This document shows, piece by piece, positions 2,520-63,163 of a stretch of DNA of 64,000 nt. The DNA is taken from sequence record PP434429. One strand, given 5' to 3'. The notes under the pieces were generated by a model. It did not search any database. It was not told where the DNA came from and worked only from the letters and a program-made list of their open reading frames with translations. The stretch is from Escherichia phage LH01. Made by a program: the position numbers and the translations under genes. The first letter of the stretch is position 1; each line of letters opens with the position of its first letter.

Positions 2520-2840
2520 TTACGCTGTGAAGATTTTATCCCACATCGCAACAACTGCATCTCGGTTATACTTCTTCCATACCGCTTCAGCACGTTTAAC
2601 TCGAGCTTCGTATGTGTCAGTGAATTCTAATACAGCTTTTGTGTAAAGCGCAACTACTTCTTTCTTAGGAGTAGAGGAATCAATTTCTACACGCACAGTA
2701 TCTGGGTCGTATTCGAATGTCGCATGAGGATAATCCTTAAAAACTAACTGGATTACAGGGACACCTTTAGAGATGGCTTCAATAGAACTATTCTCTACCG
2801 TACCTGTGTCAGGACACGTATTGATAAGTGCTTTAGCTGT
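2520..2840 (-). pseudogene. C-terminal glycosyltransferase fragment in alternate frame (continuation of 2795..3619)
   Basis: 106 sense codons ending at TAA 2520-2522 with no ATG/GTG/TTG near the 5' end; encodes ...VENSSIEAISKGVPVIQLVF..., a GT-B C-terminal signature; overlaps the upstream ORF in a different frame over about 2798-2840. Confidence 0.5.
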
Positions 2841-3619
2841 TTAAGACGTTCCATGATTTCACTGTGTGGAGCATCAATAATAACAGGATACTTAGCCGGT
2901 GGTGCCCATTTACTAGGACAGTATCCTACACCATTTTCGCCTAGTGCTTTAATCGCTTCAAGAGCAACATCAGTACGACGCATTTTAGTGTCATAACGTT
3001 GTGCACTAATAATCAGATCAGTCGCCGGAAGAACTTCAGGTTTATCATTCAAACAAATAACCGGATAATCTTCGGCTTCAAACAACGGATTTGCTCGCCA
3101 ATAATCATAATCAATTTTGTCAGTCAGACCTGAAGTCATATAACAATATTTGCGTTCAAATTCACGGAAGGCTTTAGTAGGAGCATAACTCTTACCACCG
3201 TTCTTATGAATTTGAATAGTCTGGTCCCAAATTTGAACAATGCCACGAGACACCGGTTCAAATGGTGTTGCCATAAAATTCTTATGAACTTTAGAGAGAC
3301 CCGCGTCTTTAATTGCCTGAACGGTTAGTTTGGTCGGTTCCATTGTAACAACGAAATCGTACTCATTAATGCCGGCTAGTTCAACAATCTTACGAGCCAT
3401 AGTATAACTCATACCTAGACTGAATTTAGTCAGATGACCAACAGGATGATGATTAACCTTCCAGTCACCAAACGTGTCATTATCAAAGCCGATATAATCA
3501 ATATCAGCACCGATGGACACAAGATATTTCAATACATTTAAATGTACTGCTTCAAGACCACCTTGTACACGTTCTGGGTTAAATGGGACTGCGCGAGATG
3601 GGATAAACATAACTTTCAT
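2795..3619 (-). CDS. glycosyltransferase-like protein, N-terminal portion of a frame-interrupted gene
   Basis: 274-aa ORF, ATG at 3619; Rossmann-like half typical of GT-B enzymes; frame terminates at TAG 2795 while the C-terminal GT motif continues in another frame. Confidence 0.55.
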   Translation of the reverse strand: MKVMFIPSRAVPFNPERVQGGLEAVHLNVLKYLVSIGADIDYIGFDNDTFGDWKVNHHPVGHLTKFSLGMSYTMARKIVELAGINEYDFVVTMEPTKLTVQAIKDAGLSKVHKNFMATPFEPVSRGIVQIWDQTIQIHKNGGKSYAPTKAFREFERKYCYMTSGLTDKIDYDYWRANPLFEAEDYPVICLNDKPEVLPATDLIISAQRYDTKMRRTDVALEAIKALGENGVGYCPSKWAPPAKYPVIIDAPHSEIMERLKQLKHLSIRVLTQVR

Positions 3620-3645
3620 AATTAAGCCTTATTAAAATTAAAATG

Positions 3646-3663
3646 AAGCTCCCGAAGGAGCTT
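3646..3663 (-). terminator. C(UUCG)G tetraloop hairpin at 3' end of topoisomerase gene
   Basis: perfect 7-bp inverted repeat AAGCTCC/GGAGCTT around CGAA (UUCG on the transcript), overlapping the gene 39 stop codon. Confidence 0.4.
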
Positions 3664-5479
3664 AGGACATCCATTCTTTACGAAGTTCTGAATCATCACC
3701 CATCAGCATTTCAAAGAGTTCTTTCCAATTTTCAGGAAGTTTAACTACGTCGTACACAGGGTTCTGAATCATTTCACGATACTCTGACTTTTCAAGGGAG
3801 CCTAATCCCTTGATGTATCGAATACTATGCTTAGGCAGTGTATCTTTAACTTCTTCATACTCAGCTACAGTATAAAACCATTTTTGAGTTTTGCCAATTT
3901 GTGCAATAATTACAGGTGTTTTAACAAAGCGAATACGTCCTTGTTCAAACAATTCAGGCCAATTACTAAAGAAAGCAAGCAAAGCAGGATAAATACTTCC
4001 AAGACCGTCATGATCGGCATCAGTCATAATTGCAATATTACGATAGTTCGTATTCTCTGCCTTTTCACCAAGAATAAGACCCGTGATAGCACAGATATCA
4101 AAGAGCTCTTTGTTCTTCATCATATCAGCATATGACATACCCCAGCTATTCATCACCTTACCACGTAATGGGAATCCGCCGTGTAGTTCACGGTCACGAA
4201 CATCAATGAGATAACCAATTGCCGAATCACCTTCTGTTAAAAACAATGTCGTATCTGCATCTTTACCACATTGGTTAGCTTTAATATGCTTATGAACCTT
4301 AGCTTTAGTTGCCTTTTTAGCTGCTTTAGTTTCTGCAGCCTTTTCTGCCGCCAATTTACGAGCTAATGCTGCTTCAACAATAGGCATAATCAAGGCTTCA
4401 TTTTTAAGAAGTGCCTGAGCAATTTTCTTAGCATCTAATTGGATATGATTACGAATATCACCATACGTTGACGTTAAACGTTCTTTAGTCTGGGAATCAA
4501 AACGCATGTTGCTCATGTCTCTAATAAACATCAACATTGTGAGACATTCTTTAACACGAGCTTTAGTGACTTCAATACCCTTATATTTCTTTTTAATACC
4601 CGGCAAAAGATGTTCGCAGATATCGTCCATTACACATTCAACATGATGTCCACCATTTTTAGTATGGATGTTATTCACATAAGTTAAATGACGGAAGCCA
4701 TCTGGTGATGTTGTGAATGCTATAGAGACTTTATCATTTTCTTGAATGATGTTATCTTCACCAAATTGTTTAGCAAATCGTTTAAAATTACCATCGACCT
4801 TTTTACCATTAAATGTGAACTTGATATCAGGATAAACGACTGCCAATGTTTGAAGTCGGTCTAAAGTAATATCTAAATAAATTTGAGATAAATTATGATC
4901 TTCAAATGAAGTGAAATCAGGAGTGAAGATTACTTTAGTGCCTTTACCTTTAGATTTCTTAGAAGACCATGATTTGTTTTCCATTCCGTTTGAACAGTTA
5001 ACAGTGATTTCATTTTCGCCATCTGACGTGATGCCTGTAAACAACGTAGAGAAGATATTAGTCAAACTACTCCCGACGCCGTTCATACCACCAGTCTTGC
5101 GTTCAGAGTCATCGCCAAAGTTACCACCAGCTTTTGGAATAGTCCAGGCTGCTACAGGACCAGGAATTTGTTCACCTGTTTGGTCGGTAACTAAACCTTG
5201 AGGAATACCACGTCCGTTATCTTCCACCGAAACTTGATTATTTTTAATTTGCACATCAATTTTATTTGCAAACTTAAATGATGTACGAATAGCTTCATCA
5301 ACCGAGTTGTCAATAATCTCATCGATTAATTTAACCAGACCAGGAACATATTCAACTTGTTGATATTTACCAAACAAAAAACGCTCATGTGCTTCTTTAG
5401 CAGAAGAACCAATATACATGCCACTACGTTTCTTAATATGTTCTACATCTGACAGTACCTTAATTTCATTTTTAATCAT
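3662..5479 (-). CDS. 39: DNA topoisomerase II large subunit (GyrB-like ATPase), single continuous ORF
   Basis: 605-aa ORF; GHKL ATPase and GyrB-type motifs (DNGRGIP, GGMNGVGSS); AGGAG RBS before ATG 5479; the size equals T4 gp39 plus gp60. Confidence 0.9.
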   Translation of the reverse strand: MIKNEIKVLSDVEHIKKRSGMYIGSSAKEAHERFLFGKYQQVEYVPGLVKLIDEIIDNSVDEAIRTSFKFANKIDVQIKNNQVSVEDNGRGIPQGLVTDQTGEQIPGPVAAWTIPKAGGNFGDDSERKTGGMNGVGSSLTNIFSTLFTGITSDGENEITVNCSNGMENKSWSSKKSKGKGTKVIFTPDFTSFEDHNLSQIYLDITLDRLQTLAVVYPDIKFTFNGKKVDGNFKRFAKQFGEDNIIQENDKVSIAFTTSPDGFRHLTYVNNIHTKNGGHHVECVMDDICEHLLPGIKKKYKGIEVTKARVKECLTMLMFIRDMSNMRFDSQTKERLTSTYGDIRNHIQLDAKKIAQALLKNEALIMPIVEAALARKLAAEKAAETKAAKKATKAKVHKHIKANQCGKDADTTLFLTEGDSAIGYLIDVRDRELHGGFPLRGKVMNSWGMSYADMMKNKELFDICAITGLILGEKAENTNYRNIAIMTDADHDGLGSIYPALLAFFSNWPELFEQGRIRFVKTPVIIAQIGKTQKWFYTVAEYEEVKDTLPKHSIRYIKGLGSLEKSEYREMIQNPVYDVVKLPENWKELFEMLMGDDSELRKEWMS

Positions 5480-5501
5480 GTTGTCTCCTCGTTATGAAGG
5501 T

Positions 5502-5528
5502 ATTCTATCATCCGAAATCTAAAGCAAA
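5502..5528 (-). promoter_or_regulatory. MotA-box middle promoter candidate upstream of gene 39
   Basis: minus strand reads TTTGCTTTAG, 12 nt, TAGAAT, about 20 nt before the ATG; matches T4 middle promoter architecture. Confidence 0.4.
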
Positions 5529-5542
5529 AAGGGCCGAAGCCC
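5521..5542 (-). terminator. intrinsic terminator, GGGC(UUCG)GCCC hairpin plus U-tract
   Basis: stem-loop immediately after the stop of 5543..5965, followed on the transcript by UUUUUGCUUU. Confidence 0.6.
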
Positions 5543-5965
5543 TTATTTAAATTTAATTTTCTGAAGTGCATCAATTGCAGCCAAACGCCCTTGTTCACTT
5601 TTAACTGTAATGACCACATCGCCTGATACGATCACCGAACCATCAACAAATTCTATAGAGCCTTTTTTGAAATCGACAGCTGTATCTGGTTCCGGAACTT
5701 CTTCAAAGAATTTAAATTCTGCACCATAAAGCAGAATATCACCTTGCATACTAATGATTGTACGTCCAGGTCCATCGGTTTCAGCGGCAATCATTGAAAC
5801 ACCGTAGCCAATCATCTCTTCTACAATAAAATCTCTTGATAATAAAACCGTATGCAGAGTAGTGTTAAGACGTTTACCAGTCGTATTAAGAATTCTCAAG
5901 AAATTATCTTCCTGTCCTTTGATAATACGATATTTCTTACCAACTTCAAAACCTTTAAAAGCCAT
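5543..5965 (-). CDS. hypothetical protein (syntenic with T4 goF/comC-alpha position)
   Basis: 140-aa ORF with ATG start directly upstream of gene 39; no diagnostic motif recognised. Confidence 0.5.
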   Translation of the reverse strand: MAFKGFEVGKKYRIIKGQEDNFLRILNTTGKRLNTTLHTVLLSRDFIVEEMIGYGVSMIAAETDGPGRTIISMQGDILLYGAEFKFFEEVPEPDTAVDFKKGSIEFVDGSVIVSGDVVITVKSEQGRLAAIDALQKIKFK

Positions 5966-5967
5966 AA

Positions 5968-6147
5968 TTAACCCTTCTTAAGTAAGTCGTAAAAACCACC
6001 GTTCACATGTTTAGGAGCAGAAACCCGACGAGTAGACAGACGATGACATTCAGGGCAAACATCGTTTTCTCGTTCAGAAATCCTTTTAATTTTTTCATAT
6101 TCATGACCACAATCTTCAGATTGGCATTTATAGTCGTATAACGGCAT
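5968..6147 (-). CDS. FmdB-type zinc-ribbon small protein
   Basis: 59-aa ORF below the track threshold: MPLYDYKCQSEDCGHEYEKIK...CPECH; two CxxC pairs and the MP-x-Y-x-Y-x-C N-terminus typical of FmdB-family zinc ribbons. Confidence 0.5.
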   Translation of the reverse strand: MPLYDYKCQSEDCGHEYEKIKRISERENDVCPECHRLSTRRVSAPKHVNGGFYDLLKKG

Positions 6148-6149
6148 TA

Positions 6150-6560
6150 TTATTCCTTAAAATGTGCTTTCAACATTTGATACAAAGACCATGCCTGGTC
6201 GTTATTTTCGATAGTAATTGTCATCACCGGAAATTCAGACAATTCGCCAAGTTCACCAGAATCTTGCTCTTCGGACGCTTGATACGGATTTCCCACTTCA
6301 TCAAAAAACTCTGCTTCACTAGTAGAGAGCCAGATAAAGTTTTCATCAAGGATATCACCGCCTGTTGCGTATCCAACCATGCCAGTAGATGTCACAATTT
6401 TAGTAGGACGTCCAAGATGGTCAACATCTAATACTTTAAATGGTTCCATGCCAAGACGTCGTGCATAAATCCCATTATCAGTGTGGTCTTTAATAAACTC
6501 TTCTTGGGCACGTTTATCTTTAAATTGGTACCATGAATTAACGCGGAATTTATTAGCCAT
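6150..6560 (-). CDS. hypothetical protein
   Basis: ORF 6150..6578; ATG for MANKF at 6560 overlaps the stop of the upstream gene (TAATG). Confidence 0.5.
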
Positions 6561-6787
6561 TAGTAAGTTTCCTTCCAATAAGTTGTACCGTTTTCAGTGA
6601 TTTCACGGAAGATACCATAGATAGGCATTTCATCACCGAGTTTTTCGTAAACGTAAACCACTTCGGTGTAGCATAAAAATCCGGTCCAGTTTTTCTGTAC
6701 AACAACTAAATCAGGATTAAACAGAACATCTTCAAACTCATCGATGTTTGAATCAGTAGTTACGTTTTTAATGATTTGACGTTTCAT
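6560..6787 (-). CDS. hypothetical protein
   Basis: internal ATG (MKRQII) at 6787 preceded by AGGAG RBS and an early-type promoter; longer track ORF extends into the promoter. Confidence 0.45.
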
Positions 6788-6815
6788 AATATTCTCCTCT
6801 TGTTTTGATAGGTCT

Positions 6816-6844
6816 ATAGTATCATAGACCATAGTTGTTGTACA
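6816..6844 (-). promoter_or_regulatory. early-type promoter (-35 TGTACA, 17-nt spacer, -10 TACTAT)
   Basis: motif read on the minus strand between the 6845..7369 stop and the 6787 start. Confidence 0.45.
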
Positions 6845-7369
6845 TCATTTTAGCAAAATAAAATCAACTTGTTCTGCCAATGAACGTCTAAACATTAATT
6901 GACAACTTCCGAGGATGAAATCAGGTGCTTCATAGACCGCGATGTAGTATCCTTTAGCTTTCAAGAGTTCAACATCCACTTGGTCATCAAACCATGCATA
7001 AACCGCATCAACACTTTCAAATCCAAAATAGAACCCTTGAGCCCAATCTTCACTCAATTCAAATGTGTGCTCAATTCTATAGTATCTTAAGATATTTTGT
7101 TCAAGGAGTTTGTCTTCATTTACTGTAGGACGATTAGGGACATTATAGTTGTCGCCGTGATGGTAGAAGTTACCTGAGAGTATTCCATGTTTATCAAGGA
7201 ACTCCCATGTTTCTTCAGAGTTGTCGGTGCCTGACCAACCGTACGGCGAGCGAGGTTCTTTATTCCAAGAGGTTTCCCAAATTCTGACGGCTTTACCGTC
7301 TTCGATAGCAATTCCTGGTAATGATTCACGTTGAGTACAAAAACTACGTTCTACGCGGTAAACTAACAT
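6845..7369 (-). CDS. hypothetical protein
   Basis: 174-aa ORF, ATG at 7369 with AGGAG RBS 7 nt upstream. Confidence 0.55.
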   Translation of the reverse strand: MLVYRVERSFCTQRESLPGIAIEDGKAVRIWETSWNKEPRSPYGWSGTDNSEETWEFLDKHGILSGNFYHHGDNYNVPNRPTVNEDKLLEQNILRYYRIEHTFELSEDWAQGFYFGFESVDAVYAWFDDQVDVELLKAKGYYIAVYEAPDFILGSCQLMFRRSLAEQVDFILLK

Positions 7370-11246: not shown

Positions 11247-11993
11247 TTAACCTTTAATCAGTTGGAATAATGATGCGCTAAGTGGTAAGCCACGTTTCAA
11301 TTTTAATTTACCAATGAAACCAATCTTTTCAAAACGTTGCAGACCTTGGATAACTTTATCATATGTATCGAAAAGCGATTCAGCGTCAGTTAATTTAGTT
11401 TTAGTTTTCCAGTCAGAGCCTTTAAGAAGAACGTTGAGTTTAGTAAGTTCATGGCCTTCTGCTTGATGTGAGCCATTAATGCGTGCTTTCAAAGCAACAA
11501 TTCTAAGTTTAGATTCGTTAGATAAAGGTTGATTTTTCATCATGTTCGCCATATGCTTAACACGATTTTCACGTTTTGCTCGGATTTTTAAAATAGTATC
11601 ATAAACCTTTTTGATTTGGGCCCATTTCTTCTCGTCGAGATTAAGTTTCTCTACTTTACGGACAGAAGGATTAGCGATACGTCTTGCAATGGCATCACGT
11701 TTCTCAATAAGTTCTTCTAATGTTAAATCAGAACGAGCCGTGTTATATTTTTTCTTAACTGGGATAACATTACCTTTAATGTAGCCTATATCGTTATTAA
11801 AACGTTCTAAGGATAATTTCTCACCTTCAACAGAGTTATTGAAAGATTCACCTGAGTAAGCGCAGACCTTTTGATCAAGAACGTTTTTAAGGTAATTAAA
11901 GTCTAAGTTAAAATCCTTAGAGCGTCTCTTCGCAGAAGCTCTAGTGTGGTCAAGACGACGATTGATTTTGTTAATTTTATTATTTGATAACAT
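11247..11993 (-). CDS. hypothetical basic protein (position of T4 srd)
   Basis: 248-aa ORF, ATG at 11993; Lys/Arg-rich; a CAYSGE...NDIGYIKGNV segment vaguely resembles HNH/AP2-type DNA-binding modules but lacks clear catalytic residues. Confidence 0.5.
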   Translation of the reverse strand: MLSNNKINKINRRLDHTRASAKRRSKDFNLDFNYLKNVLDQKVCAYSGESFNNSVEGEKLSLERFNNDIGYIKGNVIPVKKKYNTARSDLTLEELIEKRDAIARRIANPSVRKVEKLNLDEKKWAQIKKVYDTILKIRAKRENRVKHMANMMKNQPLSNESKLRIVALKARINGSHQAEGHELTKLNVLLKGSDWKTKTKLTDAESLFDTYDKVIQGLQRFEKIGFIGKLKLKRGLPLSASLFQLIKG

Positions 11994-12042
11994 AATATTT
12001 TCCTCTGTCTTACGGACGTTAGGTCATTTAGCTGATAGGCCT

Positions 12043-15588: not shown

Positions 15589-16109
15589 TAATAACCTCGG
15601 TCTTGACGTGCGAAATTTTCAGCATTTTTCAGGTAATAAAGTTTAAAGATTTCTTCTGCTGTAAGACCAAGACCTTGGAACATGTTCAGAACGAAATGGA
15701 GAATATCAATCATTTCAAACTTAATTTCCAGTTGGTCTTCAGGAGACAGTTCATCGATACGACGATTTCGATATTCAGCATGTTGTGCTTTCCATGGCTT
15801 CCATACAGAGCTAGCGGCTTTTTCACCATTGCTCATACCACCAAGTGAAGTCAGCAGTTCACGGAATTCATCATCAATATAATCTTTCTGATTACGCAGC
15901 CAATCAACAACATCACCAGCAGTAGCCAATTCATCAGGATGTTTGTTATGTTCAGGCTTGTCATTTGCCAGACGAACTTGTAAAGATTTCTGCATATCAA
16001 GCATTACCTGCAGTGGGTCTTTATCTTCGTGAATCAGAGCATTAAAATAAGCTTCTTCTGCTTTATCAACACCAGAAATAAGTTGTGAACATTCGTTAAA
16101 GTGTGCCAT
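15588..16109 (-). CDS. 56: dCTP pyrophosphatase (MazG-like)
   Basis: start at ATG for MAHFNECSQL with AAAGGA RBS; MazG-like helical NTP-PPase pattern; position adjacent to gene 61. Confidence 0.75.
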   Translation of the reverse strand: MAHFNECSQLISGVDKAEEAYFNALIHEDKDPLQVMLDMQKSLQVRLANDKPEHNKHPDELATAGDVVDWLRNQKDYIDDEFRELLTSLGGMSNGEKAASSVWKPWKAQHAEYRNRRIDELSPEDQLEIKFEMIDILHFVLNMFQGLGLTAEEIFKLYYLKNAENFARQDRGY

Positions 16110-24137: not shown

Positions 24138-24686
24138 TTAACGAGCCCATTTGATGATTTCTGTAATCAAACCATTACGTTCGCTTGCATTAAATCCTAT
24201 AACTTTGTTAGCACCATCATGATTAAGTAATTGATATGTTTGGATTTTGTTATGAATTGCAAACTCTTCAAAATGTGAAATGACTGTATTAAAACCGAAT
24301 GAAGACAAAGTAATAAGGTCGTCTTCAAAACTTTCAGTCATTTCGTTACGTGTTAAAATAATTGTGAACACATCATGGTTTTGGCAAAGACGAACATAGT
24401 CCTGTTCATAAACGTCAAGAACCGAGTCCGCATCTTGTCGAATACGCCCATAAACCCAGTTACTAATATATCCACGGTCTAACAGATAAATCTTAGTAGG
24501 GTCTAAATAATTCAACATCGTTTCGAAACAGCCAACTTCATTTCGAGACTTAACATCGAAACGCCCATCAACTGTTCGTTTAGGGAAATCAATCTTTACA
24601 TATCTTTCACTAATTTCCATTATGTCATTAATGAAAGTTGTTTTACCAGCATTATCTGGGCCGTCTACTAAAATAATTTTAGCCAT
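24138..24686 (-). CDS. P-loop nucleoside-monophosphate kinase, thymidylate-kinase-like
   Basis: 182-aa ORF; Walker A GPDNAGKTT and a DRGYIS segment resembling the TMPK DRY motif; ATG lies 1 nt after the upstream stop. Confidence 0.6.
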   Translation of the reverse strand: MAKIILVDGPDNAGKTTFINDIMEISERYVKIDFPKRTVDGRFDVKSRNEVGCFETMLNYLDPTKIYLLDRGYISNWVYGRIRQDADSVLDVYEQDYVRLCQNHDVFTIILTRNEMTESFEDDLITLSSFGFNTVISHFEEFAIHNKIQTYQLLNHDGANKVIGFNASERNGLITEIIKWAR

Positions 24687-24687
24687 T

Positions 24688-25587
24688 TTATTCCTCGATT
24701 ACGACATCTTCGTATTTAGGTATATTATACGGTGAAGAAATTAAAGCATTAAAGTAGATGAACTCACCAAGACCTGGATGGAATACTTCTTCAGGATTTT
24801 CGAAATATTGAATTTTCGGACGTCCTTTAAGAATTTGATAGTACTCAGTTTTAGTTGGTTTAAAAATTCGAATCAGCGCTTCTTCAGGATACTTATTTCT
24901 GTCGAAGCTATTATTTGGATCGGTTATATAAAGCGGTTGACCTAATTGAATTGCACATTCAACCACTTGTTCAAAACGATAACATGGGTCACTAATTCGA
25001 AATGGATGAAAAATACCATCTAGATGAATAGGAGCCAAATCACCTACAAGACGCTGCATGATGGAAGGACGTATAACTTTCTGAGTTACGATAATCTTAT
25101 TACCATCTGCACCGGCGTTAACCAGCACTTCTTTTTGACGTTCATTCAACACAGTAGTTTGAAGTGAACGATTAACCGACAACATATCGGTTTTTAAGAA
25201 TTCGTCAATATAAAAACGTGGTTTATTAGGGTCTGCCGTGATATTGAAATTGAATTCTACATCAAAAGCGCCGTCATATCCAGTGATATCTGTTATTAGA
25301 AAATCACAATCATAATAAGCAATTAATGAATCAACCACAAATTCATTTTCAGACCAGAAATATTTACGAGTGTTATACGCGTTATCTTTATACCATAATG
25401 GAACAAACTTAAATTCTGGGAAAAGACGTTCACATTCTTTAATATCAGATGCATTACGTGGATATGTAATCACATCACCCGGATTAGCACGGTGCAAATG
25501 AAGTTGGAAGTTGCCATCCTTAAGGATAGCATACTGTCCAGTTTCATAAGACCGCATACTCAAGATAGGTACGCGGAAAATAGCCAT
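24688..25587 (-). CDS. hypothetical protein translationally coupled to gene 42 (candidate DNA-modification enzyme)
   Basis: 299-aa ORF whose ATG overlaps the gene 42 stop (TAATG); occupies the locus where T4 has beta-gt; no recognisable motif. Confidence 0.55.
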   Translation of the reverse strand: MAIFRVPILSMRSYETGQYAILKDGNFQLHLHRANPGDVITYPRNASDIKECERLFPEFKFVPLWYKDNAYNTRKYFWSENEFVVDSLIAYYDCDFLITDITGYDGAFDVEFNFNITADPNKPRFYIDEFLKTDMLSVNRSLQTTVLNERQKEVLVNAGADGNKIIVTQKVIRPSIMQRLVGDLAPIHLDGIFHPFRISDPCYRFEQVVECAIQLGQPLYITDPNNSFDRNKYPEEALIRIFKPTKTEYYQILKGRPKIQYFENPEEVFHPGLGEFIYFNALISSPYNIPKYEDVVIEE

Positions 25588-26303
25588 TAGTCAAGGAATC
25601 CTTTAACATAATCAAAATCACGTTCAAACACATGGGCACTTACCATGGTATGAGTATAATCACCAACTTCTACACCACATTCGTTAGCGATATAATGAAG
25701 TAATTTTCCTTGGAGATAAAAATCCAACTGCATAACAACAGCACAGTTCTGAGAACGCATATGACAGTGGGTATAAAGCTTACCATCACGAATATAATAA
25801 GTTACTGAGTCAGTACATGGATATTCAAGTGTTTCGTCCGAATCAAGCAAAGCCTGATCAGAACTTTCTAGAATTTGGAACACAACTCTTCGGGAGTTAG
25901 GCTTCTCTTTAAGTTCTTTTAGAAGAGCTGGTAATTGGGCCGCAATGCGAGGACCATAGAAAGTGTTGAAGTTCGCCGGCAAAACATCTGATTTTGGTTT
26001 AGAAATAAATTTAGCGACATTAGGATATGCCTTAAACGCTTCTTCTGCGTTGGTACCACCAGAAATCATAAACTTCCAGAAGTCTTCGGCATATTCATAA
26101 GAGATGCGGTTAATACGTGGGTCGGTCATTTTGAATGATGATGGAGTGTCAACAACTACTGTCATAGACCCAATTTCATTACAACGTCCAATACGAGAAT
26201 CAGTTACGAATTCGGGGTTTTCTAAAATTTCACGATTGACTGCTTTAAATGCGGTTTGAAAATCTGCGGCTTTGATATATTTCATTGTGTTATGTTTTCC
26301 CAT
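25587..26303 (-). CDS. 42: dCMP hydroxymethylase (thymidylate-synthase fold)
   Basis: 238-aa ORF; TS-like catalytic region EYPCTDS...HMRSQN with Asp where TS has Asn (QLDFY) by my alignment; position between uvsX and 43. Confidence 0.65.
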   Translation of the reverse strand: MGKHNTMKYIKAADFQTAFKAVNREILENPEFVTDSRIGRCNEIGSMTVVVDTPSSFKMTDPRINRISYEYAEDFWKFMISGGTNAEEAFKAYPNVAKFISKPKSDVLPANFNTFYGPRIAAQLPALLKELKEKPNSRRVVFQILESSDQALLDSDETLEYPCTDSVTYYIRDGKLYTHCHMRSQNCAVVMQLDFYLQGKLLHYIANECGVEVGDYTHTMVSAHVFERDFDYVKGFLD

Positions 26304-26345: not shown

Positions 26346-26585
26346 TTATTTGAATTTCTTGGCAATGTTGATATAACGTAAAGCTTCAGAATCTATACTT
26401 CCAAGAACACTATGAAGGAATGCATCAGTGTAGTATTCCAATTGAACAGGTTCTTTAATCACTTTAGCCGCTTTGGTTTCAAACAGGCCCATAAGGGCCT
26501 TTTTAAGAATTTGTTCGTTAGTGTTCAGTTTCATAGTCAAAATCTCTTTGTTAAGTTTATAATTAAAACTTTTTCTAGAAATCAT
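26346..26585 (-). CDS. hypothetical small protein
   Basis: 79-aa ORF from the track. Confidence 0.35.
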   Translation of the reverse strand: MISRKSFNYKLNKEILTMKLNTNEQILKKALMGLFETKAAKVIKEPVQLEYYTDAFLHSVLGSIDSEALRYINIAKKFK

Positions 26586-27751
26586 TCCGGGTACCTCAAA
26601 GCGTCATCAGAGTTAGTTATATCAATAATAGATATGGAGTTTTCTGCTAACCCGTTTTTAGATAATTGACGTTTATAATACCTTTCACAATATGTACACG
26701 TTGACCCACAGATTTCATTAGCACAATCAAAATCTGGATGTCTGAACCACCTTTTTTCTAAAAAGCCATCTAACAAAGAGGTTTCAATATTTACTGTATG
26801 TGAAAACTCAGTCTCATTTTCAAGAGTGAAAATAGTCTCTAAAGGCTTCCACAGTTCTAACAAATTACCTTCAAACTTTTCAGAAGCGTATGCTTCAAGA
26901 ACTTTCAAAATGTAGTCTGTGCTACCTGTACGTCCTGAAACTTTGAATTGAGTGATACCAATATCATTATAAAGTTTCAAATCTTGAGGACGAACAAAAC
27001 GAGTTCTCAACCAGTTAAATGGGTCTGTATCACGAGCTTTAATGCAGTGTTGCATTGGATATCCATTTAAGGATTTAGCATCATCAGCTGTAACATCAGT
27101 ACTATGGAAAATATAGCAAGAGTCACGATAACTGCAATGTGTTGTATACCCTTTACCAGCATTAGAACAGAACTCATTTACAAGAACTTCAAATATTATA
27201 TTGTTCTTATTGCAAAACTCTGCTGCACGCTTCAGGAAAGAAACTGAACGGTTCTTATGAATTCCACAGCAGACCTTTTTGATATTGTATTGGTCATGTA
27301 AGTATTTTATTTGAGTTACAGCATCGACATGTAGAATTGTTGAAACTTCAATCTCAATGTCTTTATTGACTTCACGAACAATTTCCATAACAACAGGGTT
27401 AGCGATAGTAATACGCCATACGCCTATTGACCAAAGATACTGAACATAATCCTGAATAGCTTTCTTCTTCCACTCGACTAGTTCTCTTTTTGAACCAGGA
27501 TTTATCGTGTTGAGTGTATAGTTAAAGCAAATACCTAATTCGTTACAACGTTTAACGTAATCTTCTAACATCTTTTTGTCAACGTCAGGAAGCCTAAAAT
27601 CAGGTCTGGCTGCTACAAAAGCCATTTCTCTTGTAGAGCCGTATACTTCGTTTATCAAGCTGTTAGGATAAGTTTTATTGAGCTCTACGATTTTATCAAG
27701 AAGAGCTAAATCAAAATTCGTTCCGATTTTAAAAGTATTCATTTTTTGCAT
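26582..27751 (-). CDS. Cys-rich protein of unknown function (candidate modification enzyme)
   Basis: 389-aa ORF; C-terminal CGSTCTYC (CxxxCxxC) plus further conserved-looking Cys; no confident family call. Confidence 0.55.
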   Translation of the reverse strand: MQKMNTFKIGTNFDLALLDKIVELNKTYPNSLINEVYGSTREMAFVAARPDFRLPDVDKKMLEDYVKRCNELGICFNYTLNTINPGSKRELVEWKKKAIQDYVQYLWSIGVWRITIANPVVMEIVREVNKDIEIEVSTILHVDAVTQIKYLHDQYNIKKVCCGIHKNRSVSFLKRAAEFCNKNNIIFEVLVNEFCSNAGKGYTTHCSYRDSCYIFHSTDVTADDAKSLNGYPMQHCIKARDTDPFNWLRTRFVRPQDLKLYNDIGITQFKVSGRTGSTDYILKVLEAYASEKFEGNLLELWKPLETIFTLENETEFSHTVNIETSLLDGFLEKRWFRHPDFDCANEICGSTCTYCERYYKRQLSKNGLAENSISIIDITNSDDALRYPE

Positions 27752-27797: not shown

Positions 27798-28184
27798 TTA
27801 TAGATTCGGTTTATATGATTTAAATGTTTCGAATTCGCCTTTATTCATAAGAGCTTTGAATTCGTCAGGACGCATAGCTTTGTCGTCGATAATCCAATCA
27901 TATACTGGTTTATGTGTTAGCAAATTATGGTACTTCAAGCCAATGTTTGCCAAGTTCTGAATCAGACTTGGGAGAATGTCAATTGCTATACGACCAGGAC
28001 CTACTGACTTCATACCACGAGCAGTGTAAAGCGTTATGGTATGCCCTGCATCATACAGGGCATTAATGGCAGACACCATTTCGACGTCTGGTTTGAAGTT
28101 CACGTAATCACGATTGTTATTCCACTCTGTTATACAATCATCGACATCAAAACAAAGATTAAGCATGTTTTCTACACGGTGCAT
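27798..28184 (-). CDS. HAD-superfamily phosphatase (small, KdsC-like size)
   Basis: start at ATG for MHRVENMLNLCFDVDDCIT (HAD motif I DxDx[T/C]); later LYTARG and DWIIDDKA motifs; ATG overlaps the upstream stop. Confidence 0.6.
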   Translation of the reverse strand: MHRVENMLNLCFDVDDCITEWNNNRDYVNFKPDVEMVSAINALYDAGHTITLYTARGMKSVGPGRIAIDILPSLIQNLANIGLKYHNLLTHKPVYDWIIDDKAMRPDEFKALMNKGEFETFKSYKPNL

Positions 28185-29869
28185 TAGATTCGTTCCCATT
28201 GATGAGTGATATCGCCACCGATTGGACGATAGGAAACACCAGTTTCTTTATCAGTTAGTACCCATTTACCAGGATTTTTTGTAATCAGAGTAGCCGTTAC
28301 AGGTTCTGCTACGTCATAACTAATAGAGCCGTCTTGAAGTACACGGCCCATGTTGCGTAATTGCTTAGTCAGAAGTTCCATACCTTTATAATATGCGGCT
28401 ACCGCTTTAAGTGGATTATTCTTGAAATAACCACCTAATGCAATCCAGATAATTGCCACCGCCAAATGATGATACTCGTTAAACGAACTCATCTTTCCAT
28501 ATTTGTAAATTAATGGATTGATGTTAATAGTCACATTACAAGTTGTTTCATCAATAGTAAACTGTCCCCAGGTCGGATTAGCATTGAATTCATCATAACC
28601 TGAAACGGCATAAAGCACTTTAGCTTCATCATACAATTTTGGCCCGTAAATCTTGGTTTCGCCAAAATATCCACGAGGGTCGATAAACTTGACTTCGCCG
28701 TTATCAGTAATCATAGTATTACTGAAGTTCGGGTCACCATGAATAACAGAGTACTGTCCCTGAGAACGATTATGATAACGAATAAGGTGTTCTAAAGCTT
28801 GTTTCAGCATTGGCTTCAGACGTCCAATCTTAGTGTAGTTCACATGTGTGATTTTACCAAATGAATCAATCAATGGTTGAATACTTTCACAACGATCAAT
28901 AACTTTCGTATAGAATTCTTTAGTGAAATCACGACGAACAGTTTCAGGACTTACAAAATACGTGTCTGTGCTGAATTTCAGTGCATCTAAAATTGCATCA
29001 ACAATTTGTGGACGAGCAAGACTTGATTTGGATTTAATATATTCAAATGCCGGCTTACCTTTAATGCGTTCCATTTCAAAGTTATTTTCATTAACAGAAA
29101 CTAACTGAGGAACTGAATCTGATTTCACTTTCAAATACCACGAAATCTCATCTTTCTGAAGAGCTCGTCCCTGTTCGGTTAATGCGAATTTAGTTACAGT
29201 TTCTTCACCAATTTCAACTGCATTAAAACTACGATTAAGTTCACGAACTTCATGAGCTTTTTCAAGTTTAGGCATATCACCTAAATCAATTAGATTCATA
29301 AGCTCTGATTTATTGAATGCGCCGCTGTAAAGGAATTCTACGAAATCACGTCCTTTGCAGTATTCATGAATTTCCTCATCGGTAGAACCCATATAGAATT
29401 CCCAGTCTTTGAACTGATAAATTCCTACAACATTACCACCTGTTGAACCTACGTTAGTGATATTTTCACCGTCGAAATTATACCGACATTCGTCACCCTT
29501 AACATAGATTGCGTTAACATTCCAAGACCATGAACCAAAATCAGGAATAATATCACACCAGTTAACAATTACATTATGGCCATCTAAATCTTTGTGTAAT
29601 TTAGCAAGAGCATAAGCAGAACCATACGCTTCATCAACTGTACGAATAGTCACATTGAACCCTTCTTGCTCACAATAAGCTCGAACAGTTTCAGCAAATT
29701 TTGAATGAACTACTACAATAATTTCATCTGCGCCAAGGTCAGAATAAATTGTATACAAATTGCTCAGAATAGTGTCTTGTTTATAGTTAACAAGCACCTT
29801 AGGAATATGATGCGTTATTGGATACAAACGAGTTGCCAGTCCAGCACCAAGAATAACAGCTTTTTTCAT
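28184..29869 (-). CDS. bifunctional sugar-1-phosphate nucleotidyltransferase / sugar kinase (APH-ChoK-like)
   Basis: 561-aa ORF; N-terminus ILGAGLATRLYPIT...PKVLV (NTP-transferase signature); C-terminus VIHGDPNFSNTMI...FIDPRGYFG (Brenner HGD-N and DFG-like motifs of APH/choline-kinase fold). Confidence 0.75.
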   Translation of the reverse strand: MKKAVILGAGLATRLYPITHHIPKVLVNYKQDTILSNLYTIYSDLGADEIIVVVHSKFAETVRAYCEQEGFNVTIRTVDEAYGSAYALAKLHKDLDGHNVIVNWCDIIPDFGSWSWNVNAIYVKGDECRYNFDGENITNVGSTGGNVVGIYQFKDWEFYMGSTDEEIHEYCKGRDFVEFLYSGAFNKSELMNLIDLGDMPKLEKAHEVRELNRSFNAVEIGEETVTKFALTEQGRALQKDEISWYLKVKSDSVPQLVSVNENNFEMERIKGKPAFEYIKSKSSLARPQIVDAILDALKFSTDTYFVSPETVRRDFTKEFYTKVIDRCESIQPLIDSFGKITHVNYTKIGRLKPMLKQALEHLIRYHNRSQGQYSVIHGDPNFSNTMITDNGEVKFIDPRGYFGETKIYGPKLYDEAKVLYAVSGYDEFNANPTWGQFTIDETTCNVTININPLIYKYGKMSSFNEYHHLAVAIIWIALGGYFKNNPLKAVAAYYKGMELLTKQLRNMGRVLQDGSISYDVAEPVTATLITKNPGKWVLTDKETGVSYRPIGGDITHQWERI

Positions 29870-29910: not shown

Positions 29911-30054
29911 CTAGTTAAAGCATTCATACTTTGCTTGTAGTCCAATCATAGTCCATCCGATTATAAGAGTCGGAATCATTACTGGAGCCGTTAAGCTCCA
30001 GTAGATAGTCATGACAAGCATCAATAGTAAAAGTCCTATTGTTATTGCTTTCAT
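29911..30054 (-). CDS. small membrane protein
   Basis: 47-aa ORF below the track threshold (MKAITIGLLLLMLVMTIYW...); ATG overlaps the SIS gene stop (ATGA). Confidence 0.35.
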   Translation of the reverse strand: MKAITIGLLLLMLVMTIYWSLTAPVMIPTLIIGWTMIGLQAKYECFN

Positions 30055-30686
30055 TGCTCGCCTCGTAACATGGCACCTAGTGCACCGCCTGGATGGAACT
30101 TAAGGAAATCATTAGAGGTAAATCCACGTTCAGACGAAAGGTTGATAGCAAAAGTATCGATAAGCGCTAACAATAATGTAGTGGACATAGTCGGAGCCAG
30201 AGAATTCTCATCAACCTCTACTGCGATGCCTGTACAGAACGTATAATCAAAAAGAGCTTCGTATTCTTGTGGAATGTCTGGGTTACAATGCAACAGAATC
30301 TGTTTGACGTTCGGACGAATCATTTTAAGATGCTTAGCCACGCCTATCATTTCTTCAGTTTTACCAGAACGACTAATATGAATCAACACATCATTAGGCG
30401 CAATGAATCCTGCATCACCGTGAGAATAATGCCCAGTGTTCAAGTACATACTCGGGATACCGAGTGAAGCAAATGTCTCAGAAGCTTTAGTTGCAATATT
30501 AGCATTCTTACCAACACCTGTAATAATTACTCGGCTTTCATAATTACTAAGTCCAGGGCGTCGAAGAGTTTCTAGAATAGCATTATAACGAGCAGGGTTT
30601 TGACTAATTACTTTGGCCATAGCGGCCAAAGAAGAAGCTTGTTTTATGATTGCGTCAATAGCGATATTAATAGGAGTAGTTTTCAT
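30051..30686 (-). CDS. SIS-domain sugar-phosphate isomerase, KdsD/GutQ-type (single domain)
   Basis: 211-aa ORF; ITGVGKNANIATKA...HGDAG...ISRSGKTEE...APTMSTT...HPGGALG matches the arabinose-5-phosphate isomerase SIS pattern; no CBS domains. Confidence 0.75.
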   Translation of the reverse strand: MKTTPINIAIDAIIKQASSLAAMAKVISQNPARYNAILETLRRPGLSNYESRVIITGVGKNANIATKASETFASLGIPSMYLNTGHYSHGDAGFIAPNDVLIHISRSGKTEEMIGVAKHLKMIRPNVKQILLHCNPDIPQEYEALFDYTFCTGIAVEVDENSLAPTMSTTLLLALIDTFAINLSSERGFTSNDFLKFHPGGALGAMLRGEQ

Positions 30687-45050: not shown

Positions 45051-45521
45051 TTAATCATGTTTCCACACCCCATCGGTATTTGACCAAAGTCGCTGATTAT
45101 CTGATCCTCGCCACAACTTTTTGGTCGGAAGATTTTTCTCATACTTCCCATCAATAATAACATCAACATATTTAAGCATTTCTAGCTGTTTAATATCTTC
45201 AAACTTATATCCTGTCCACAACCAAATGCTTTTATTGGGATAAAGATTTTTAATAGTTTGAACTACAGAGCGAATAACATCTCGGTTATCAGGATAGAGA
45301 GGGTCTCCTCCGGTTATAGTTAATCCTTCTATATAATCATTATTCAAGCATTCAATTAATTGTTCTAGTGTCTCTCCAGTGAATGGAATACCATTTCTAG
45401 CGTTCCATGTTGATTTATTATAACACCCTTCACATTTATGCAAACAACCTGTAACGAAAAGAACGACCCTGCAACCAGGGCCATTCACAAAATCGCAAGG
45501 ATAAAATCTATCATAATTCAT
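45051..45521 (-). CDS. nrdG: anaerobic ribonucleotide reductase activating protein (radical SAM)
   Basis: 156-aa ORF; CDFVNGPGCR and CxxxCxxC (CLHKCEGC); ATG overlaps the nrdD stop (ATGA). Confidence 0.85.
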   Translation of the reverse strand: MNYDRFYPCDFVNGPGCRVVLFVTGCLHKCEGCYNKSTWNARNGIPFTGETLEQLIECLNNDYIEGLTITGGDPLYPDNRDVIRSVVQTIKNLYPNKSIWLWTGYKFEDIKQLEMLKYVDVIIDGKYEKNLPTKKLWRGSDNQRLWSNTDGVWKHD

Positions 45522-47335
45522 TGGTGTTTAACTCTATGCATGATTTCTTTATTTTTACCGAGATTAAATCCGCGTTCGTTCGGATTTCCCAAATAACCGC
45601 ATGTTCTTCTTATGGTGTTCATCTTTTTAGGATCAGTTTCTCCGCAAACTGAACAAACAAATCCGTTTTCAGTAGGAGTCATTTCATGAGTACTTCCACA
45701 TGTAAAACATTTATCTACTGGCATATTAACACCAAAATAATCTAAATGTTGTGCAGCATAATCCCAGACAGCCTCAAGTCCCTTTAAATTGTTTTTCATA
45801 TCTGGAAGTTCAACATAAGAAATGTGACCACCTGTCGCAATGAAATGATATGGCGCTTCACGAGAAATCTTTTCAAACGGAGTAATATTTTCTTCTACTG
45901 AAACGTGGAAACTATTAGTGTACCAGCCTTTATCGGTAACATCTTTTACGCTTCCATATTTTTCTGTATCAAGTTTACAGAAACGATAACACAAGTTTTC
46001 AGCAGGAGTAGAATATAAACTAAAAGCAAATCCAGTTCTTTCGGTCCACTGTTTAAGATGAGCATTCATTTTAGTTAAAATTTCTTGCCCAATATCACGA
46101 CCGACAAGAATATTCAATTCGTGAATACCAATGTATCCCAAAGACACTGAACTTCTACCGTTTTTAAATAACTCAATTATGTCGTCATCAGGTTTAAGAC
46201 GGGCCCCGAATGCACCTTCTTGGTAAAGAATAGGAGCAACAGTCGCTTTAACTCCTTTTAAGGAACTAATTCTACACATCAAAGCTTCAAAACACAGGTC
46301 CATTCGTTCGTTAAATAGCTCAACAAATTTCTGTTCATTGAACTGTGTTCCAATATAAGAATCTAACGCAATACGAGGAAGATTCAGTGTTACAACACCA
46401 AGATTATTACGTCCATCAAGAATTTCATTACCAGTCGAATCTTTCCATACGCTCAAGAAACTACGGCAACCCATCGGAGAAACAGGAACTGAAGAACCGG
46501 TAATAGCTTTATTATTCTTAACCGAAATAATGTCAGGATACATTCTTTTGCTTGCACATTCTAACGCAAGTTGTTTAATATCATAGTTTGGATCATCTTT
46601 ATAAAGATTAACACCTTCTTCAACAAACATAACAAGTTTAGGAAAAATAGGAGTTATCCCATCACGTCCAAGACCTTTAATACGATTTTTCAGAATTGCT
46701 TTCTGAATCATTCGTTCAGTCCAGTCAGTTCCCGTACCAAATGTAATTGTTACAAAAGGCGTTTGCCCGTTTGAACTAAAGAGAGTATTTACTTCATATT
46801 CGTAAGCTTGGAATGCGTCATAGACATCTTTTTCTGTTTTAGATTGAGCATAATTCAACGCATCAGTGATTTGCCATTTTTCTGCATCCTCAATATGTTT
46901 TGCATAGGTGCGTTTAACATAAGGAGAAAGTACTTTATCTACATTAGCAAAAGTCGTTCCGCCGTATTGATGGGAAGCAACTTGTGCAGTAATTTGTGCC
47001 ATAATTGCAGTAGCAACACCAATCGATTTAGGCGTTTCAATTTGAGCATTGCCTAATTTAAATCCGTTCTCAAGCATCCCCTTTAAATCGACTAAACAGC
47101 AATTAGTAAATGGAAGAGCAGGGGAATAATCAATATCGTGGAAATGGATAATTCCGCTTTCATGTGCTTTCATAATAAAAGACGGGACCATATTTTTGGC
47201 AATGTGTTTAGACACAATACCGGCCATAAGGTCCCGTTGAGTTGGAAAAACACGAGAATCTTTATTAGCATTCTCGTTTAAAAGGTCTTTATTAGTTTTA
47301 TGAATCAATCCTTCAATTTCTTTTTCAATTGTCAT
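45518..47335 (-). CDS. nrdD: anaerobic ribonucleoside-triphosphate reductase (class III), uninterrupted
   Basis: 605-aa ORF; C-terminal zinc ribbon CFTCGS...CSVCGE and glycyl-radical segment RRTCGYLG. Confidence 0.9.
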   Translation of the reverse strand: MTIEKEIEGLIHKTNKDLLNENANKDSRVFPTQRDLMAGIVSKHIAKNMVPSFIMKAHESGIIHFHDIDYSPALPFTNCCLVDLKGMLENGFKLGNAQIETPKSIGVATAIMAQITAQVASHQYGGTTFANVDKVLSPYVKRTYAKHIEDAEKWQITDALNYAQSKTEKDVYDAFQAYEYEVNTLFSSNGQTPFVTITFGTGTDWTERMIQKAILKNRIKGLGRDGITPIFPKLVMFVEEGVNLYKDDPNYDIKQLALECASKRMYPDIISVKNNKAITGSSVPVSPMGCRSFLSVWKDSTGNEILDGRNNLGVVTLNLPRIALDSYIGTQFNEQKFVELFNERMDLCFEALMCRISSLKGVKATVAPILYQEGAFGARLKPDDDIIELFKNGRSSVSLGYIGIHELNILVGRDIGQEILTKMNAHLKQWTERTGFAFSLYSTPAENLCYRFCKLDTEKYGSVKDVTDKGWYTNSFHVSVEENITPFEKISREAPYHFIATGGHISYVELPDMKNNLKGLEAVWDYAAQHLDYFGVNMPVDKCFTCGSTHEMTPTENGFVCSVCGETDPKKMNTIRRTCGYLGNPNERGFNLGKNKEIMHRVKHQ

Positions 47336-62801: not shown

Positions 62802-63163
62802 TATAGACTCTCAGTAAAGGTACGAGCGATAACGTCACGCTGCTGTTCCGGAGTCAGAGAGTTAAAGCGAACTGCATAACCGGATACACGGATGGTCAAC
62901 TGCGGATATTTTTCTGGATGCTTAACTGCATCTTCCAGAGTTTCACGACGCAGAACATTAACGTTCAGGTGTTGACCACCTTCAATTTTAACTTTAGGTT
63001 GATGTTCAATTTCAATTTCACGGGCATTCAAACCGTAGAAAATTTCCGGGTCTACAATAGCGTCTTCTTTAAAAGTCTTAGAGACAATAATCCGGGCTTG
63101 AGTACCGTCTTCAAAATAAATAGTGCCTTTATGTGCACCTTCAAGAATTTGATATGCTTTCAT
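62801..63163 (-). CDS. grcA: autonomous glycyl-radical cofactor (GrcA/YfiD-like)
   Basis: 120-aa ORF; C-terminal ...[59 protein letters not shown] carries the RVSGY glycyl-radical motif and reads like enterobacterial GrcA. Confidence 0.85.

Follow-up and report, generated by a model that had tools for sequence, protein, structure and literature searches.

The DNA of phage RB69 bears mono- and di-arabinosylated 5-hydroxycytosine (5hoC) (PMC13326640, 2026). The base originates from the activity of RB69 gp48, a thymidylate synthase (ThyA) homolog which converts dCMP to 5-hydroxy-dCMP (5hodCMP) and forms 5-hydroxydeoxycytidine (5hodC) in vivo; the product takes up 18O from 18O2, and the enzyme carries a flavin resembling flavin mononucleotide (PMC13326640). 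In vitro work on phage HY126, cited in the same paper, likewise gives O2 as the oxygen source. The present analysis deals with another gene of this modification cluster, carried by Escherichia phage LH01 (sequence record PP434429) within a stretch of 64,000 nucleotides, which is referred to here as the window. The gene encodes a protein of the U32 family, and it is held with moderate confidence that this protein is an iron-sulfur (Fe-S) hydroxylase, independent of O2 and using prephenate, which acts on C5 of a cytosine deoxynucleotide and makes the 5hoC base when the host is anoxic.

The U32 family comprises the only known hydroxylases that are O2-independent and prephenate-dependent. In E. 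coli, RlhA (YdcP) makes 5-hydroxycytidine at position 2501 of 23S rRNA (ho5C2501); prephenate is required for this reaction, and a PheA variant with chorismate mutase activity only is sufficient. TrhP makes 5-hydroxyuridine at position 34 of tRNA (ho5U34) and works anaerobically, with the O2-dependent TrhO as aerobic backup. Anaerobes possess TrhP alone, and organisms living in both regimes possess TrhP together with TrhO. UbiU and UbiV serve the anaerobic synthesis of ubiquinone; each of them holds one 4Fe-4S cluster through four cysteines, and prephenate is the oxygen donor. E. coli therefore offers two precedents of an O2-dependent enzyme paired with a U32 enzyme, namely, TrhO with TrhP and UbiI/H/F with UbiU/V.

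The RB69 counterpart of the gene has received little attention. In Table 1 of PMC13326640, the sole description of RB69p050 is "sugar or heterocycle reductase," and its fold matches are to the structure 5d88; the text of that paper does not discuss it, and the words U32, peptidase, prephenate, and iron-sulfur are absent. Its Discussion names the pathways of pyrimidine hydroxylation in tRNA and rRNA, without a tie to gp50. Earlier papers on RB69 gp50 either speak of "homologs among peptidases" or do not mention it. No paper tying U32, prephenate, or chorismate mutase to phage 5hoC was found in a literature search that did not reach He et al. 2026 or Mahler et al. 2025, and the novelty of the link is conditional, a prior assignment in He et al. 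(Nat Chem Biol 2026) or Mahler et al. (Cell Host Microbe 2025) being possible.

The U32 Protein and Its Family

The open reading frame (ORF) starts with ATG, runs on the minus strand, and is free of internal stops. The initial annotation, made from the sequence, had described a cysteine-rich protein of 389 residues within a modification cluster, and this description is confirmed in both respects; the protein has 13 cysteines, and its two cysteine clusters are genuine. Met4 (27742) is the likelier true start, giving 386 residues, because GAG lies 9 nt upstream and the starts of the orthologs coincide with it. The source phage is a T4-like Mosigvirus of the RB69 group, whose modification cluster is 99% identical to that of Escherichia phage LF82-4. 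The protein itself matches its counterpart in Shigella phage Shf125875 at 100% identity and shares 99.2% identity with RB69 ORF050c; it is the ortholog of the latter within the arabinosyl-5hoC DNA-modification cluster of a Mosigvirus.

Residues 97-289 match Peptidase_U32 (PF01136) with 42.2 bits against a gathering cutoff of 22.4, and the ortholog from Serratia phage LC53 reaches 44.5 bits on the same model. The earlier statement that the protein has no recognisable signature was consequently wrong, and no match to a family unrelated to nucleotide chemistry was seen. The fold is predicted to be the U32 TIM barrel rather than GT-A or GT-B. The proposal that the protein might be the missing transferase of the cluster found no support, the arabinosyltransferases being the adjoining GT-B protein of 299 residues and the Orf003c homolog (PMC13326640), and nothing of any kind speaks for an epimerase.

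Among the E. coli paralogs, the closest by hhalign is RlhA (probability 81% over 196 columns), and the same comparison with UbiV found nothing. The sole NCBIfam match is to UbiU with 18.4 bits against a cutoff of 440, and no curated cutoff of the named subfamilies (the UbiU, UbiV, TrhP, and RlhA equivalogs) is reached. The protein falls into a distinct subfamily that is essentially viral and forms a new branch of a known kind of enzyme. An exhaustive search of 1.84 billion cluster representatives returned 455 representatives at E <= 1e-30 and 1,657 at E <= 1e-3. At 45-58% identity and a length of about 360 residues, the next homologs come from uncultured phage contigs, many of them of jumbo phages (120-466 kb) with DnaE-type polymerases. 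Among 185,579 species genomes, relatives occur in 7 loci, all in metagenome-assembled genomes (MAGs) or at scaffold ends, assigned to the anaerobe-rich groups Oscillospiraceae, Erysipelotrichales, Tannerella, Phocaeicola, Planctomycetota, Woesearchaeota, and BRC1. Neither the single protein nor a profile found a genuine match among PDB sequences (the lone match, BIM1, is due to chance), and PADLOC has no match for the U32 proteins.

Conserved Cysteines

Ten cysteines are invariant across 29 homologs whose identity goes down to 46%. Percentages of conservation were obtained from 128 full-length representatives of 50%-identity clusters, taken from the exhaustive search described above. At a first site, C195 is cysteine in 99% of them, C206 and C236 in 100%, and position 212 is cysteine in 59% and histidine in 41%. 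At a second site, C343, C348, C352, and C355 are cysteine in 94-96% each (C343 in 94%). Outside the two sites, C161 is cysteine in 56% and C180 in 13%. The cysteines are thus conserved far beyond chance, and the conservation of four ligands each at 94-100%, with cysteine or histidine at position 212, indicates that the family has two four-ligand sites, which are putative metal sites. The segment FCSNAGKGYTTHCSYRDSCY occupies residues 194-213, and the motif CGSTCTYC occupies residues 348-355. The latter had been noted for a C-terminal arrangement with the spacing of radical S-adenosylmethionine (SAM) enzymes; the spacing holds, whereas the site is not one of three cysteines, since the fourth conserved cysteine C343 extends it to CX4CX3CX2C.

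A MAFFT alignment places C195 and C206 opposite C169 and C176 of UbiU, C170 and C177 of TrhP, and C169 and C176 of RlhA; C212 aligns with the last cysteine of the CX3C of TrhP and RlhA, and GYPMQHC (C236) aligns with GYPTLC of UbiU (C232). The 4Fe-4S ligands of UbiU have been defined experimentally and include C169, C176, and C232 (PMC6747719). The U32 domain of the phage protein hence contains four conserved cysteines matching 4Fe-4S ligands, with a variant spacing and an ambiguous register, and the first site is probably of the [4Fe-4S] type. For the second site, an auxiliary, fully ligated cluster or a zinc site is a better reading than a radical-SAM site, because of its four conserved cysteines, its C-terminal position, and the non-radical-SAM fold predicted for the protein. 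By analogy, it may play the part of the cluster of the second subunit in UbiU-UbiV.

Prephenate-Supply Genes beside the U32 Gene

In Serratia phage LC53, the stop of the U32 gene overlaps the start of a gene for an AroQ chorismate mutase of 114 residues (CM_2, 44.6 bits against a cutoff of 27), which in turn overlaps the gene of the ThyA homolog. Chorismate mutase is found in 54 phage records and occupies the identical slot in each locus inspected. In Shewanella phage Thanatos-1, where the cluster is rearranged, the U32 gene (TH1_065) and the chorismate mutase gene (TH1_066) are still adjacent, with an overlap of 4 nt. The enzyme also occurs in a group of jumbo phages, and in one further contig (L010) it stands beside a Tmk-like kinase and a glycosyltransferase homolog and scores 68 bits. 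The phage chorismate mutases presumably retain the active-site pattern of AroQ, as judged against the E. coli sequence.

A step further back in supply, a gene for 3-deoxy-D-arabino-heptulosonate-7-phosphate synthase (DAHP synthase, DAHPS) abuts the U32 gene in L002, L043, and L068, and fusions of DAHPS with chorismate mutase abut it in L054 (8399-9430), L056 (3-968), and L059 (8323-9384), the fusion being confirmed in these three. The fusion ties the DAHP synthases to the shikimate-prephenate route, and the fused proteins are phage auxiliary genes for that route. An identity as KDO8P synthase, which is plausible beside an arabinose-5-phosphate (A5P) isomerase, was rejected on two grounds: the scores on DAHPS models exceed those on KDO8P synthase models by a factor of 2-4, and three of the proteins carry a fused chorismate mutase. 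By its architecture, the gene at 7290-8354 of L057 is another such fusion, directly upstream of U32 as in the three jumbo-phage contigs. The adjoining genes for chorismate mutase, DAHP synthase, or their fusions, found in several phage lineages, suggest that the U32 enzyme depends on prephenate.

Phyletic Distribution and Gene Linkage

A tblastn survey of 50,697 phage genomes located the U32 gene in 221 records, all of them Straboviridae of Enterobacterales or of Shewanella. The hosts are facultative anaerobes from genera that include Escherichia, Shigella, Klebsiella, Serratia, Proteus, Yersinia, Enterobacter, Providencia, Edwardsiella, and Shewanella. A homolog of the O2-dependent synthase is present in 373 records, including 57 phages of Acinetobacter, 20 of Rhizobium, and phages of Agrobacterium and Pseudomonas. 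Acinetobacter phage Konradin and Pseudomonas phage PspYZU05 carry a collinear cluster (A5P isomerase, nucleotidyltransferase-kinase, HAD, ThyA homolog, glycosyltransferase, and kinase) without U32, and the collinear clusters of Rhizobium phages also go without it.

The neighbours of the gene were counted in 49 IMG/VR loci, of which 15 are of Straboviridae type and 34 are other viral loci, some of them incomplete (Table 1). A set of 14 metagenome or MAG loci displays the same pattern as the 34 loci outside Straboviridae. The homology of the glycosyltransferases was evidenced by BLASTP at 23-27% identity over the full length (47-70 bits); in unrelated phage contigs, homologs of the GT-B arabinosyltransferase abut or overlap the U32 gene, with spacings of -32, -8, +4, and -11 nt.

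Table 1: Genes found near U32 in 49 IMG/VR loci.
Neighbouring gene	Straboviridae-type loci	Other viral loci
ThyA-type synthase	15/15	0/34
5hoC glycosyltransferase homolog	15/15	24/34, often overlapping U32
Tmk-like kinase	15/15	21/34
Nucleotidyltransferase-kinase	15/15	16/34
A5P isomerase	11/15	9/34
Chorismate mutase	13/15	6/34
DAHP synthase	0/15	6/34

This distribution would mirror that of TrhP and TrhO: the U32 gene alone in phages of anaerobes, both genes in phages of facultative hosts, and the O2-dependent enzyme alone in phages of aerobes. Taken with what is known of the U32 family, the phyletic pattern points to an enzyme that works without O2.

Several of the loci have neighbourhoods of their own. 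In a 466-kb contig (L001, 7447-9939) and a 60-kb contig (L003, 7504-9826), the U32 gene has a dCMP deaminase on one side and, on the other, a conserved protein with some 250 residues and no family assignment. In a 61-kb phage contig (L025, 7777-16179), it is placed among a Gly_transf_sug protein, the glycosyltransferase homolog, a TAGT-like DNA glycosyltransferase, a dUTPase/DCD protein, and a UDP-galactopyranose mutase, which suggests that galactofuranosylated 5-hydroxypyrimidine DNA is made there without a ThyA-type hydroxylase. A radical-SAM/SPASM gene stands between the Tmk-like kinase and the pair of glycosyltransferase and U32 in phage contigs with DnaE-type polymerases (L026 7980-9011, L027 7972-9000, L073 6951-7967, and L001 1-249). 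A different conserved operon, consisting of a GP88-family protein, a guanylate-kinase::SAM-methyltransferase fusion, a protein of 267 residues, and then the U32 homolog, is found in L013-L016 (about 3000-7100) and L069 (7940-11083). It comes from MAGs of Bacteroidota, BRC1, and Woesearchaeota and from an isolate of Phocaeicola faecalis, and the flanks of L016 look cellular; the operon may make a 5-methoxy or otherwise O-alkylated pyrimidine nucleotide.

Proposed Reaction

The 5hodCMP synthase adjacent to the U32 gene is a flavoenzyme drawing its oxygen from O2, and for this reason an anaerobic route would be needed. The U32 enzyme would cover the supply of 5hodCMP where the ThyA-like synthase fails, for example, in the anoxic gut. 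In the proposed sequence, whose chemical steps are borrowed by analogy from the proposal for UbiU/V, the dCTPase of the phage would yield dCMP, which the U32 TIM barrel would bind, and the ring would lose two electrons. These would pass via the [4Fe-4S]-type first site and the C-terminal four-cysteine site to an acceptor. Prephenate would then be decarboxylated and hydroxide delivered to C5, giving 5hodCMP, phenylpyruvate, and CO2. Kinases would convert 5hodCMP to 5hodCTP, the polymerase would incorporate it, and glycosyltransferases would arabinosylate the base. The constant presence of neighbours resembling nucleoside monophosphate (NMP) kinases and the dCTPase encoded in the window favour a mononucleotide substrate, dCMP.

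A number of points weigh against this reading or limit it. As to substrate, dCMP is the most likely, with dUMP or DNA as alternatives; the dCMP deaminase beside U32 in some huge phages makes dUMP a possible substrate there, and in the lineage of L001 and L003 it hints at uracil. As to prephenate, the present Mosigvirus encodes no chorismate mutase itself, which implies dependence on PheA/TyrA of the host, and several of the jumbo contigs bearing chorismate mutase are near-duplicates from one sample. As to the metal sites, both are read from conservation in sequence; the spacing of the first, CX10CX5CX23C, departs from the canonical CX6CX15CX3/4C (in UbiU CX6CX16CX38C), and the hhalign register is one cysteine off that of MAFFT, so that the exact correspondence of the ligands is uncertain. 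As to distribution, the absence of a ThyA-type synthase from the 34 other viral loci applies only to the roughly 10 kb around U32, and the correlation with hosts is confounded by phage phylogeny, with few independent events of gain or loss. The coliphage Bp7, a Dhakavirus, has the same cluster without U32, so that a phage of a facultative anaerobe can evidently do without the gene. Finally, no biochemical or genetic test of the protein was found in the literature searched, and U32 hydroxylases in general are to date without in vitro assay or reconstitution (PMC10990095).

The Bp7 cluster (L020, 4409-8589) consists of nucleotidyltransferase-kinase, HAD, a protein of 178 residues, ThyA homolog, and glycosyltransferase, with neither U32 nor chorismate mutase; DNA modification in this phage is predicted to depend on O2.

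Alternative Explanations

The alternative that survives best keeps the prephenate chemistry of the U32 family and moves it to the polymer, the enzyme hydroxylating cytosines already in DNA and not a mononucleotide. RlhA and TrhP, the characterised U32 enzymes of nucleic acids, indeed modify polymers, and RlhA is the closest E. coli paralog. We nevertheless regard it as unlikely. Little cytosine is expected in phage DNA once the phage dCTPase has removed dCTP; the NMP-kinase-like genes are linked consistently to U32, even where the ThyA-type synthase is missing, which fits a mononucleotide product; and the C-terminal extensions of RlhA are missing from the phage protein (389 against 653 residues).

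An assignment to the sugar branch, as the "sugar or heterocycle reductase" of Table 1 of PMC13326640 or as the enzyme of UDP-arabinose biosynthesis named in some GenBank records, would agree with the position of the gene between those for sugar activation and those for base modification, and with the A5P isomerase and nucleotidyltransferase-kinase homologs that co-occur with it in 9-16 of the 34 distant loci. It appears quite improbable in view of the phages of Acinetobacter and Pseudomonas, which make or encode the same arabinose pathway without U32. Moreover, AfhE and AfhF alone are credited with the synthesis of UDP-arabinose from A5P, many U32 loci (L026-L028, L046, L050, and L051) go without sugar-nucleotide genes, no U32 reductase is known, and the reading gives no reason for the chorismate mutase and DAHP synthase genes beside U32. 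Of the earlier view that the protein could be a redox enzyme acting on the sugar or the nucleotide, the part concerning the nucleotide comes close to the reading favoured here, and the part concerning the sugar is improbable.

A hydroxylase for host takeover, which makes ho5U or ho5C in tRNA or rRNA of host or phage, apart from DNA modification, would also account for the neighbouring chorismate mutase and DAHP synthase genes; every characterised U32 enzyme of nucleic acids acts on RNA and uses prephenate. However, in independent lineages the U32 gene is coupled or adjacent to genes for DNA glycosyltransferase, nucleotide kinases, dCMP deaminase, and DNA polymerase, and among the phage records surveyed it is restricted to phages of the 5hoC type, so that an RNA substrate is very improbable. 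Hardly any credence is given to a radical-SAM enzyme, for which the spacing C348-X3-C352-X2-C355 would speak, or to the "peptidase" or "collagenase-like protease" of database records, as Radical_SAM has no match in Pfam or NCBIfam at E up to 0.1, the predicted fold is that of U32, C343 would fully ligate the cluster, the conserved residues are putative metal ligands and do not make up a protease triad, and the genes around it serve nucleotide metabolism.

The O2-independent, prephenate-using hydroxylase of a cytosine deoxynucleotide thus remains the favoured reading, as the simplest one that fits the combined evidence. The initial interpretation stands in part: the modification cluster, the conserved cysteines, and redox chemistry on a nucleotide are retained, and the transferase, epimerase, and radical-SAM readings are not.

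Neighbouring Genes

The U32 gene sits between uvsX and the DNA polymerase gene gp43, in the position which in T4 is occupied by beta-gt and gene 42. On the minus strand, the order is A5P isomerase, sugar kinase/nucleotidyltransferase, HAD phosphatase, U32, the 79-residue ORF, ThyA homolog, GT-B glycosyltransferase, and Tmk-like kinase (Table 2). Scans for promoters and terminators gave scores not above those of shuffled sequence. The anaerobic ribonucleotide reductase shows that the phage is equipped for replication in anoxic hosts, and the GrcA-like protein is a further sign of anoxic adaptation.

Table 2: Features of the window discussed in the text.
Feature	Position	Strand	Remarks
dCTPase (gp56 homolog)	15591..16109	-	removes dCTP, predicted to supply dCMP to the hydroxylase step; PMC13326640 Table 1
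Thymidylate-kinase-like nucleotide kinase (RB69 gp45 ortholog)	24138..24686	-	Tmk-like
GT-B arabinosyltransferase 1, 299 aa (RB69 gp46:47 ortholog)	24688..25587	-	adds arabinose to 5hoC in DNA; PMC13326640 Table 1
ThyA-homolog 5-hydroxy-dCMP synthase (RB69 gp48 ortholog)	25587..26303	-	thymidylate synthase family match; PMC13326640
79-aa small protein (RB69 ORF049c, PHROG 8601)	26346..26585	-	phiR1-RT g049 homolog
U32-family protein, 389 aa (RB69 ORF050c ortholog)	26582..27751	-	putative metal site 1 C195/C206/C212/C236; putative metal site 2 C343/C348/C352/C355
HAD phosphatase (AfhF/RB69 gp51 ortholog)	27798..28199	-	UDP-arabinose pathway
Bifunctional sugar kinase and nucleotidyltransferase (AfhE/RB69 gp52:53 ortholog)	28184..29869	-	
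Arabinose-5-phosphate isomerase (RB69 gp55 ortholog)	30051..30686	-	
Anaerobic ribonucleotide reductase NrdD and activase NrdG	45054..47335	-	98-99% identical to annotated Shf125875 NrdD/NrdG
GrcA-like autonomous glycyl-radical cofactor	62804-63163	-	

The start of the 79-residue ORF overlaps the stop of U32 by 4 nt (ATGA), an arrangement of translational coupling. Its product is conserved in Mosigvirus and has homologs in Tegunavirus (Yersinia phage phiR1-RT g049); homologs occur in 5 of the 15 Straboviridae-type IMG/VR loci, always directly after U32. The protein has no cysteine and no family match, and its AlphaFold2 model is a helical hairpin of low confidence; possibly it assists the U32 enzyme as an accessory factor. 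Because chorismate mutase fills that slot in other phages, the ORF was tested as a cryptic chorismate mutase; this was rejected, since no similarity appeared by Pfam, BLASTP, or hidden Markov model (HMM), and the phiR1-RT homolog coexists with a chorismate mutase. The homolog of the Srd anti-sigma factor (11250-12023, minus strand) matches the phage chorismate-mutase HMM weakly (E 0.003), probably through a chance likeness of helical proteins.

The homolog of RB69 Orf003c, beta-arabinosyltransferase 2 (2523-3619, minus strand), is frameshifted near 2831. Compared with Shf125875, 1 nt is deleted in a run of A, CTTAAAACAG becoming CTTAAACAG, and the ORF falls from 363 to 274 residues; either this is a sequencing error or the phage is limited to mono-arabinosylating its DNA.

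Significance

In general terms, and by a rather small margin of belief, we lean to the view that phages own a U32 subfamily of prephenate-dependent hydroxylases which make 5-hydroxypyrimidine deoxynucleotides without O2 for DNA hypermodification. If this is true, RB69-like phages run a dual pathway, aerobic through the ThyA-like synthase and anaerobic through the U32 enzyme, and in uncultured phages of anaerobes no hydroxylase other than U32 feeds the DNA glycosyltransferases. Many phages would bring chorismate mutase, DAHP synthase, or the fusion of the two to raise the prephenate supply of the host, and these genes would gain a rationale as auxiliary genes feeding a DNA-modification enzyme. 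With this protein, viruses would have their first U32 hydroxylase, and the family its first member that acts on a precursor of DNA and possibly its first whose substrate is a soluble small molecule; a member acting on a soluble nucleotide could supply the missing in vitro assay and open the chemistry of prephenate as oxygen donor.

A gap in the pathway published in 2026 would also be closed, as the synthase depends on O2, although the hosts of these phages are gut bacteria and the phages themselves encode an anaerobic ribonucleotide reductase. Protection of DNA under anoxia is predicted for RB69-like therapeutic or model phages and perhaps not for Dhakavirus-like phages, which lack U32. Beyond these phages, the family (at least 455 clusters at 50% identity) would serve as a marker, making glycosylated 5-hydroxypyrimidine DNA likely in many uncultured jumbo phages.

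Comparison with Known Systems

One of the closest systems is RlhA, which has the Pfam domain in common with the phage protein, is its best E. coli profile match, and acts on the same atom, C5 of cytosine; the cysteines of the Fe-S region align. RlhA, however, is a protein of 653 residues with DUF3656-type extensions, acts on one residue of rRNA, and has the spacing CX6CX15CX3C, whereas the phage protein has 389 residues, the spacing CX10CX5CX23C, and an extra C-terminal CX4CX3CX2C, and it is linked to deoxynucleotide genes. UbiU-UbiV resembles it in the aligned ligands and in being the anaerobic counterpart of the flavin- and O2-dependent hydroxylases UbiI/H/F, a parallel to the logic proposed for the phage. 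It differs in being a heterodimer with one cluster in each subunit, a lipid substrate, and the help of UbiT, whereas in the phage both putative sites belong to one polypeptide.

The pair TrhP/TrhO offers a likeness in distribution. There, too, a U32 prephenate enzyme and an O2 enzyme yield one 5-hydroxypyrimidine, and the phages would repeat the pattern of U32 only, both, or the ThyA-type enzyme only; TrhP and TrhO, however, act on tRNA U34, and TrhO, the enzyme that needs O2, is a rhodanese, not a thymidylate-synthase homolog. The ThyA-like 5hodCMP synthases (RB69 gp48, DLP3 gp80, and the HY126 enzyme) would share the product 5hodCMP with the U32 protein and share with it one cluster, as neighbouring genes, but they have an unrelated fold, use flavin and O2, and are present in phages of aerobes. 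Lastly, Mk0906 (PDB 5d88), the only solved U32 structure, is 14% identical to the phage protein, has 247 residues, and contains no counterpart of the C-terminal cysteine domain of the phage protein.

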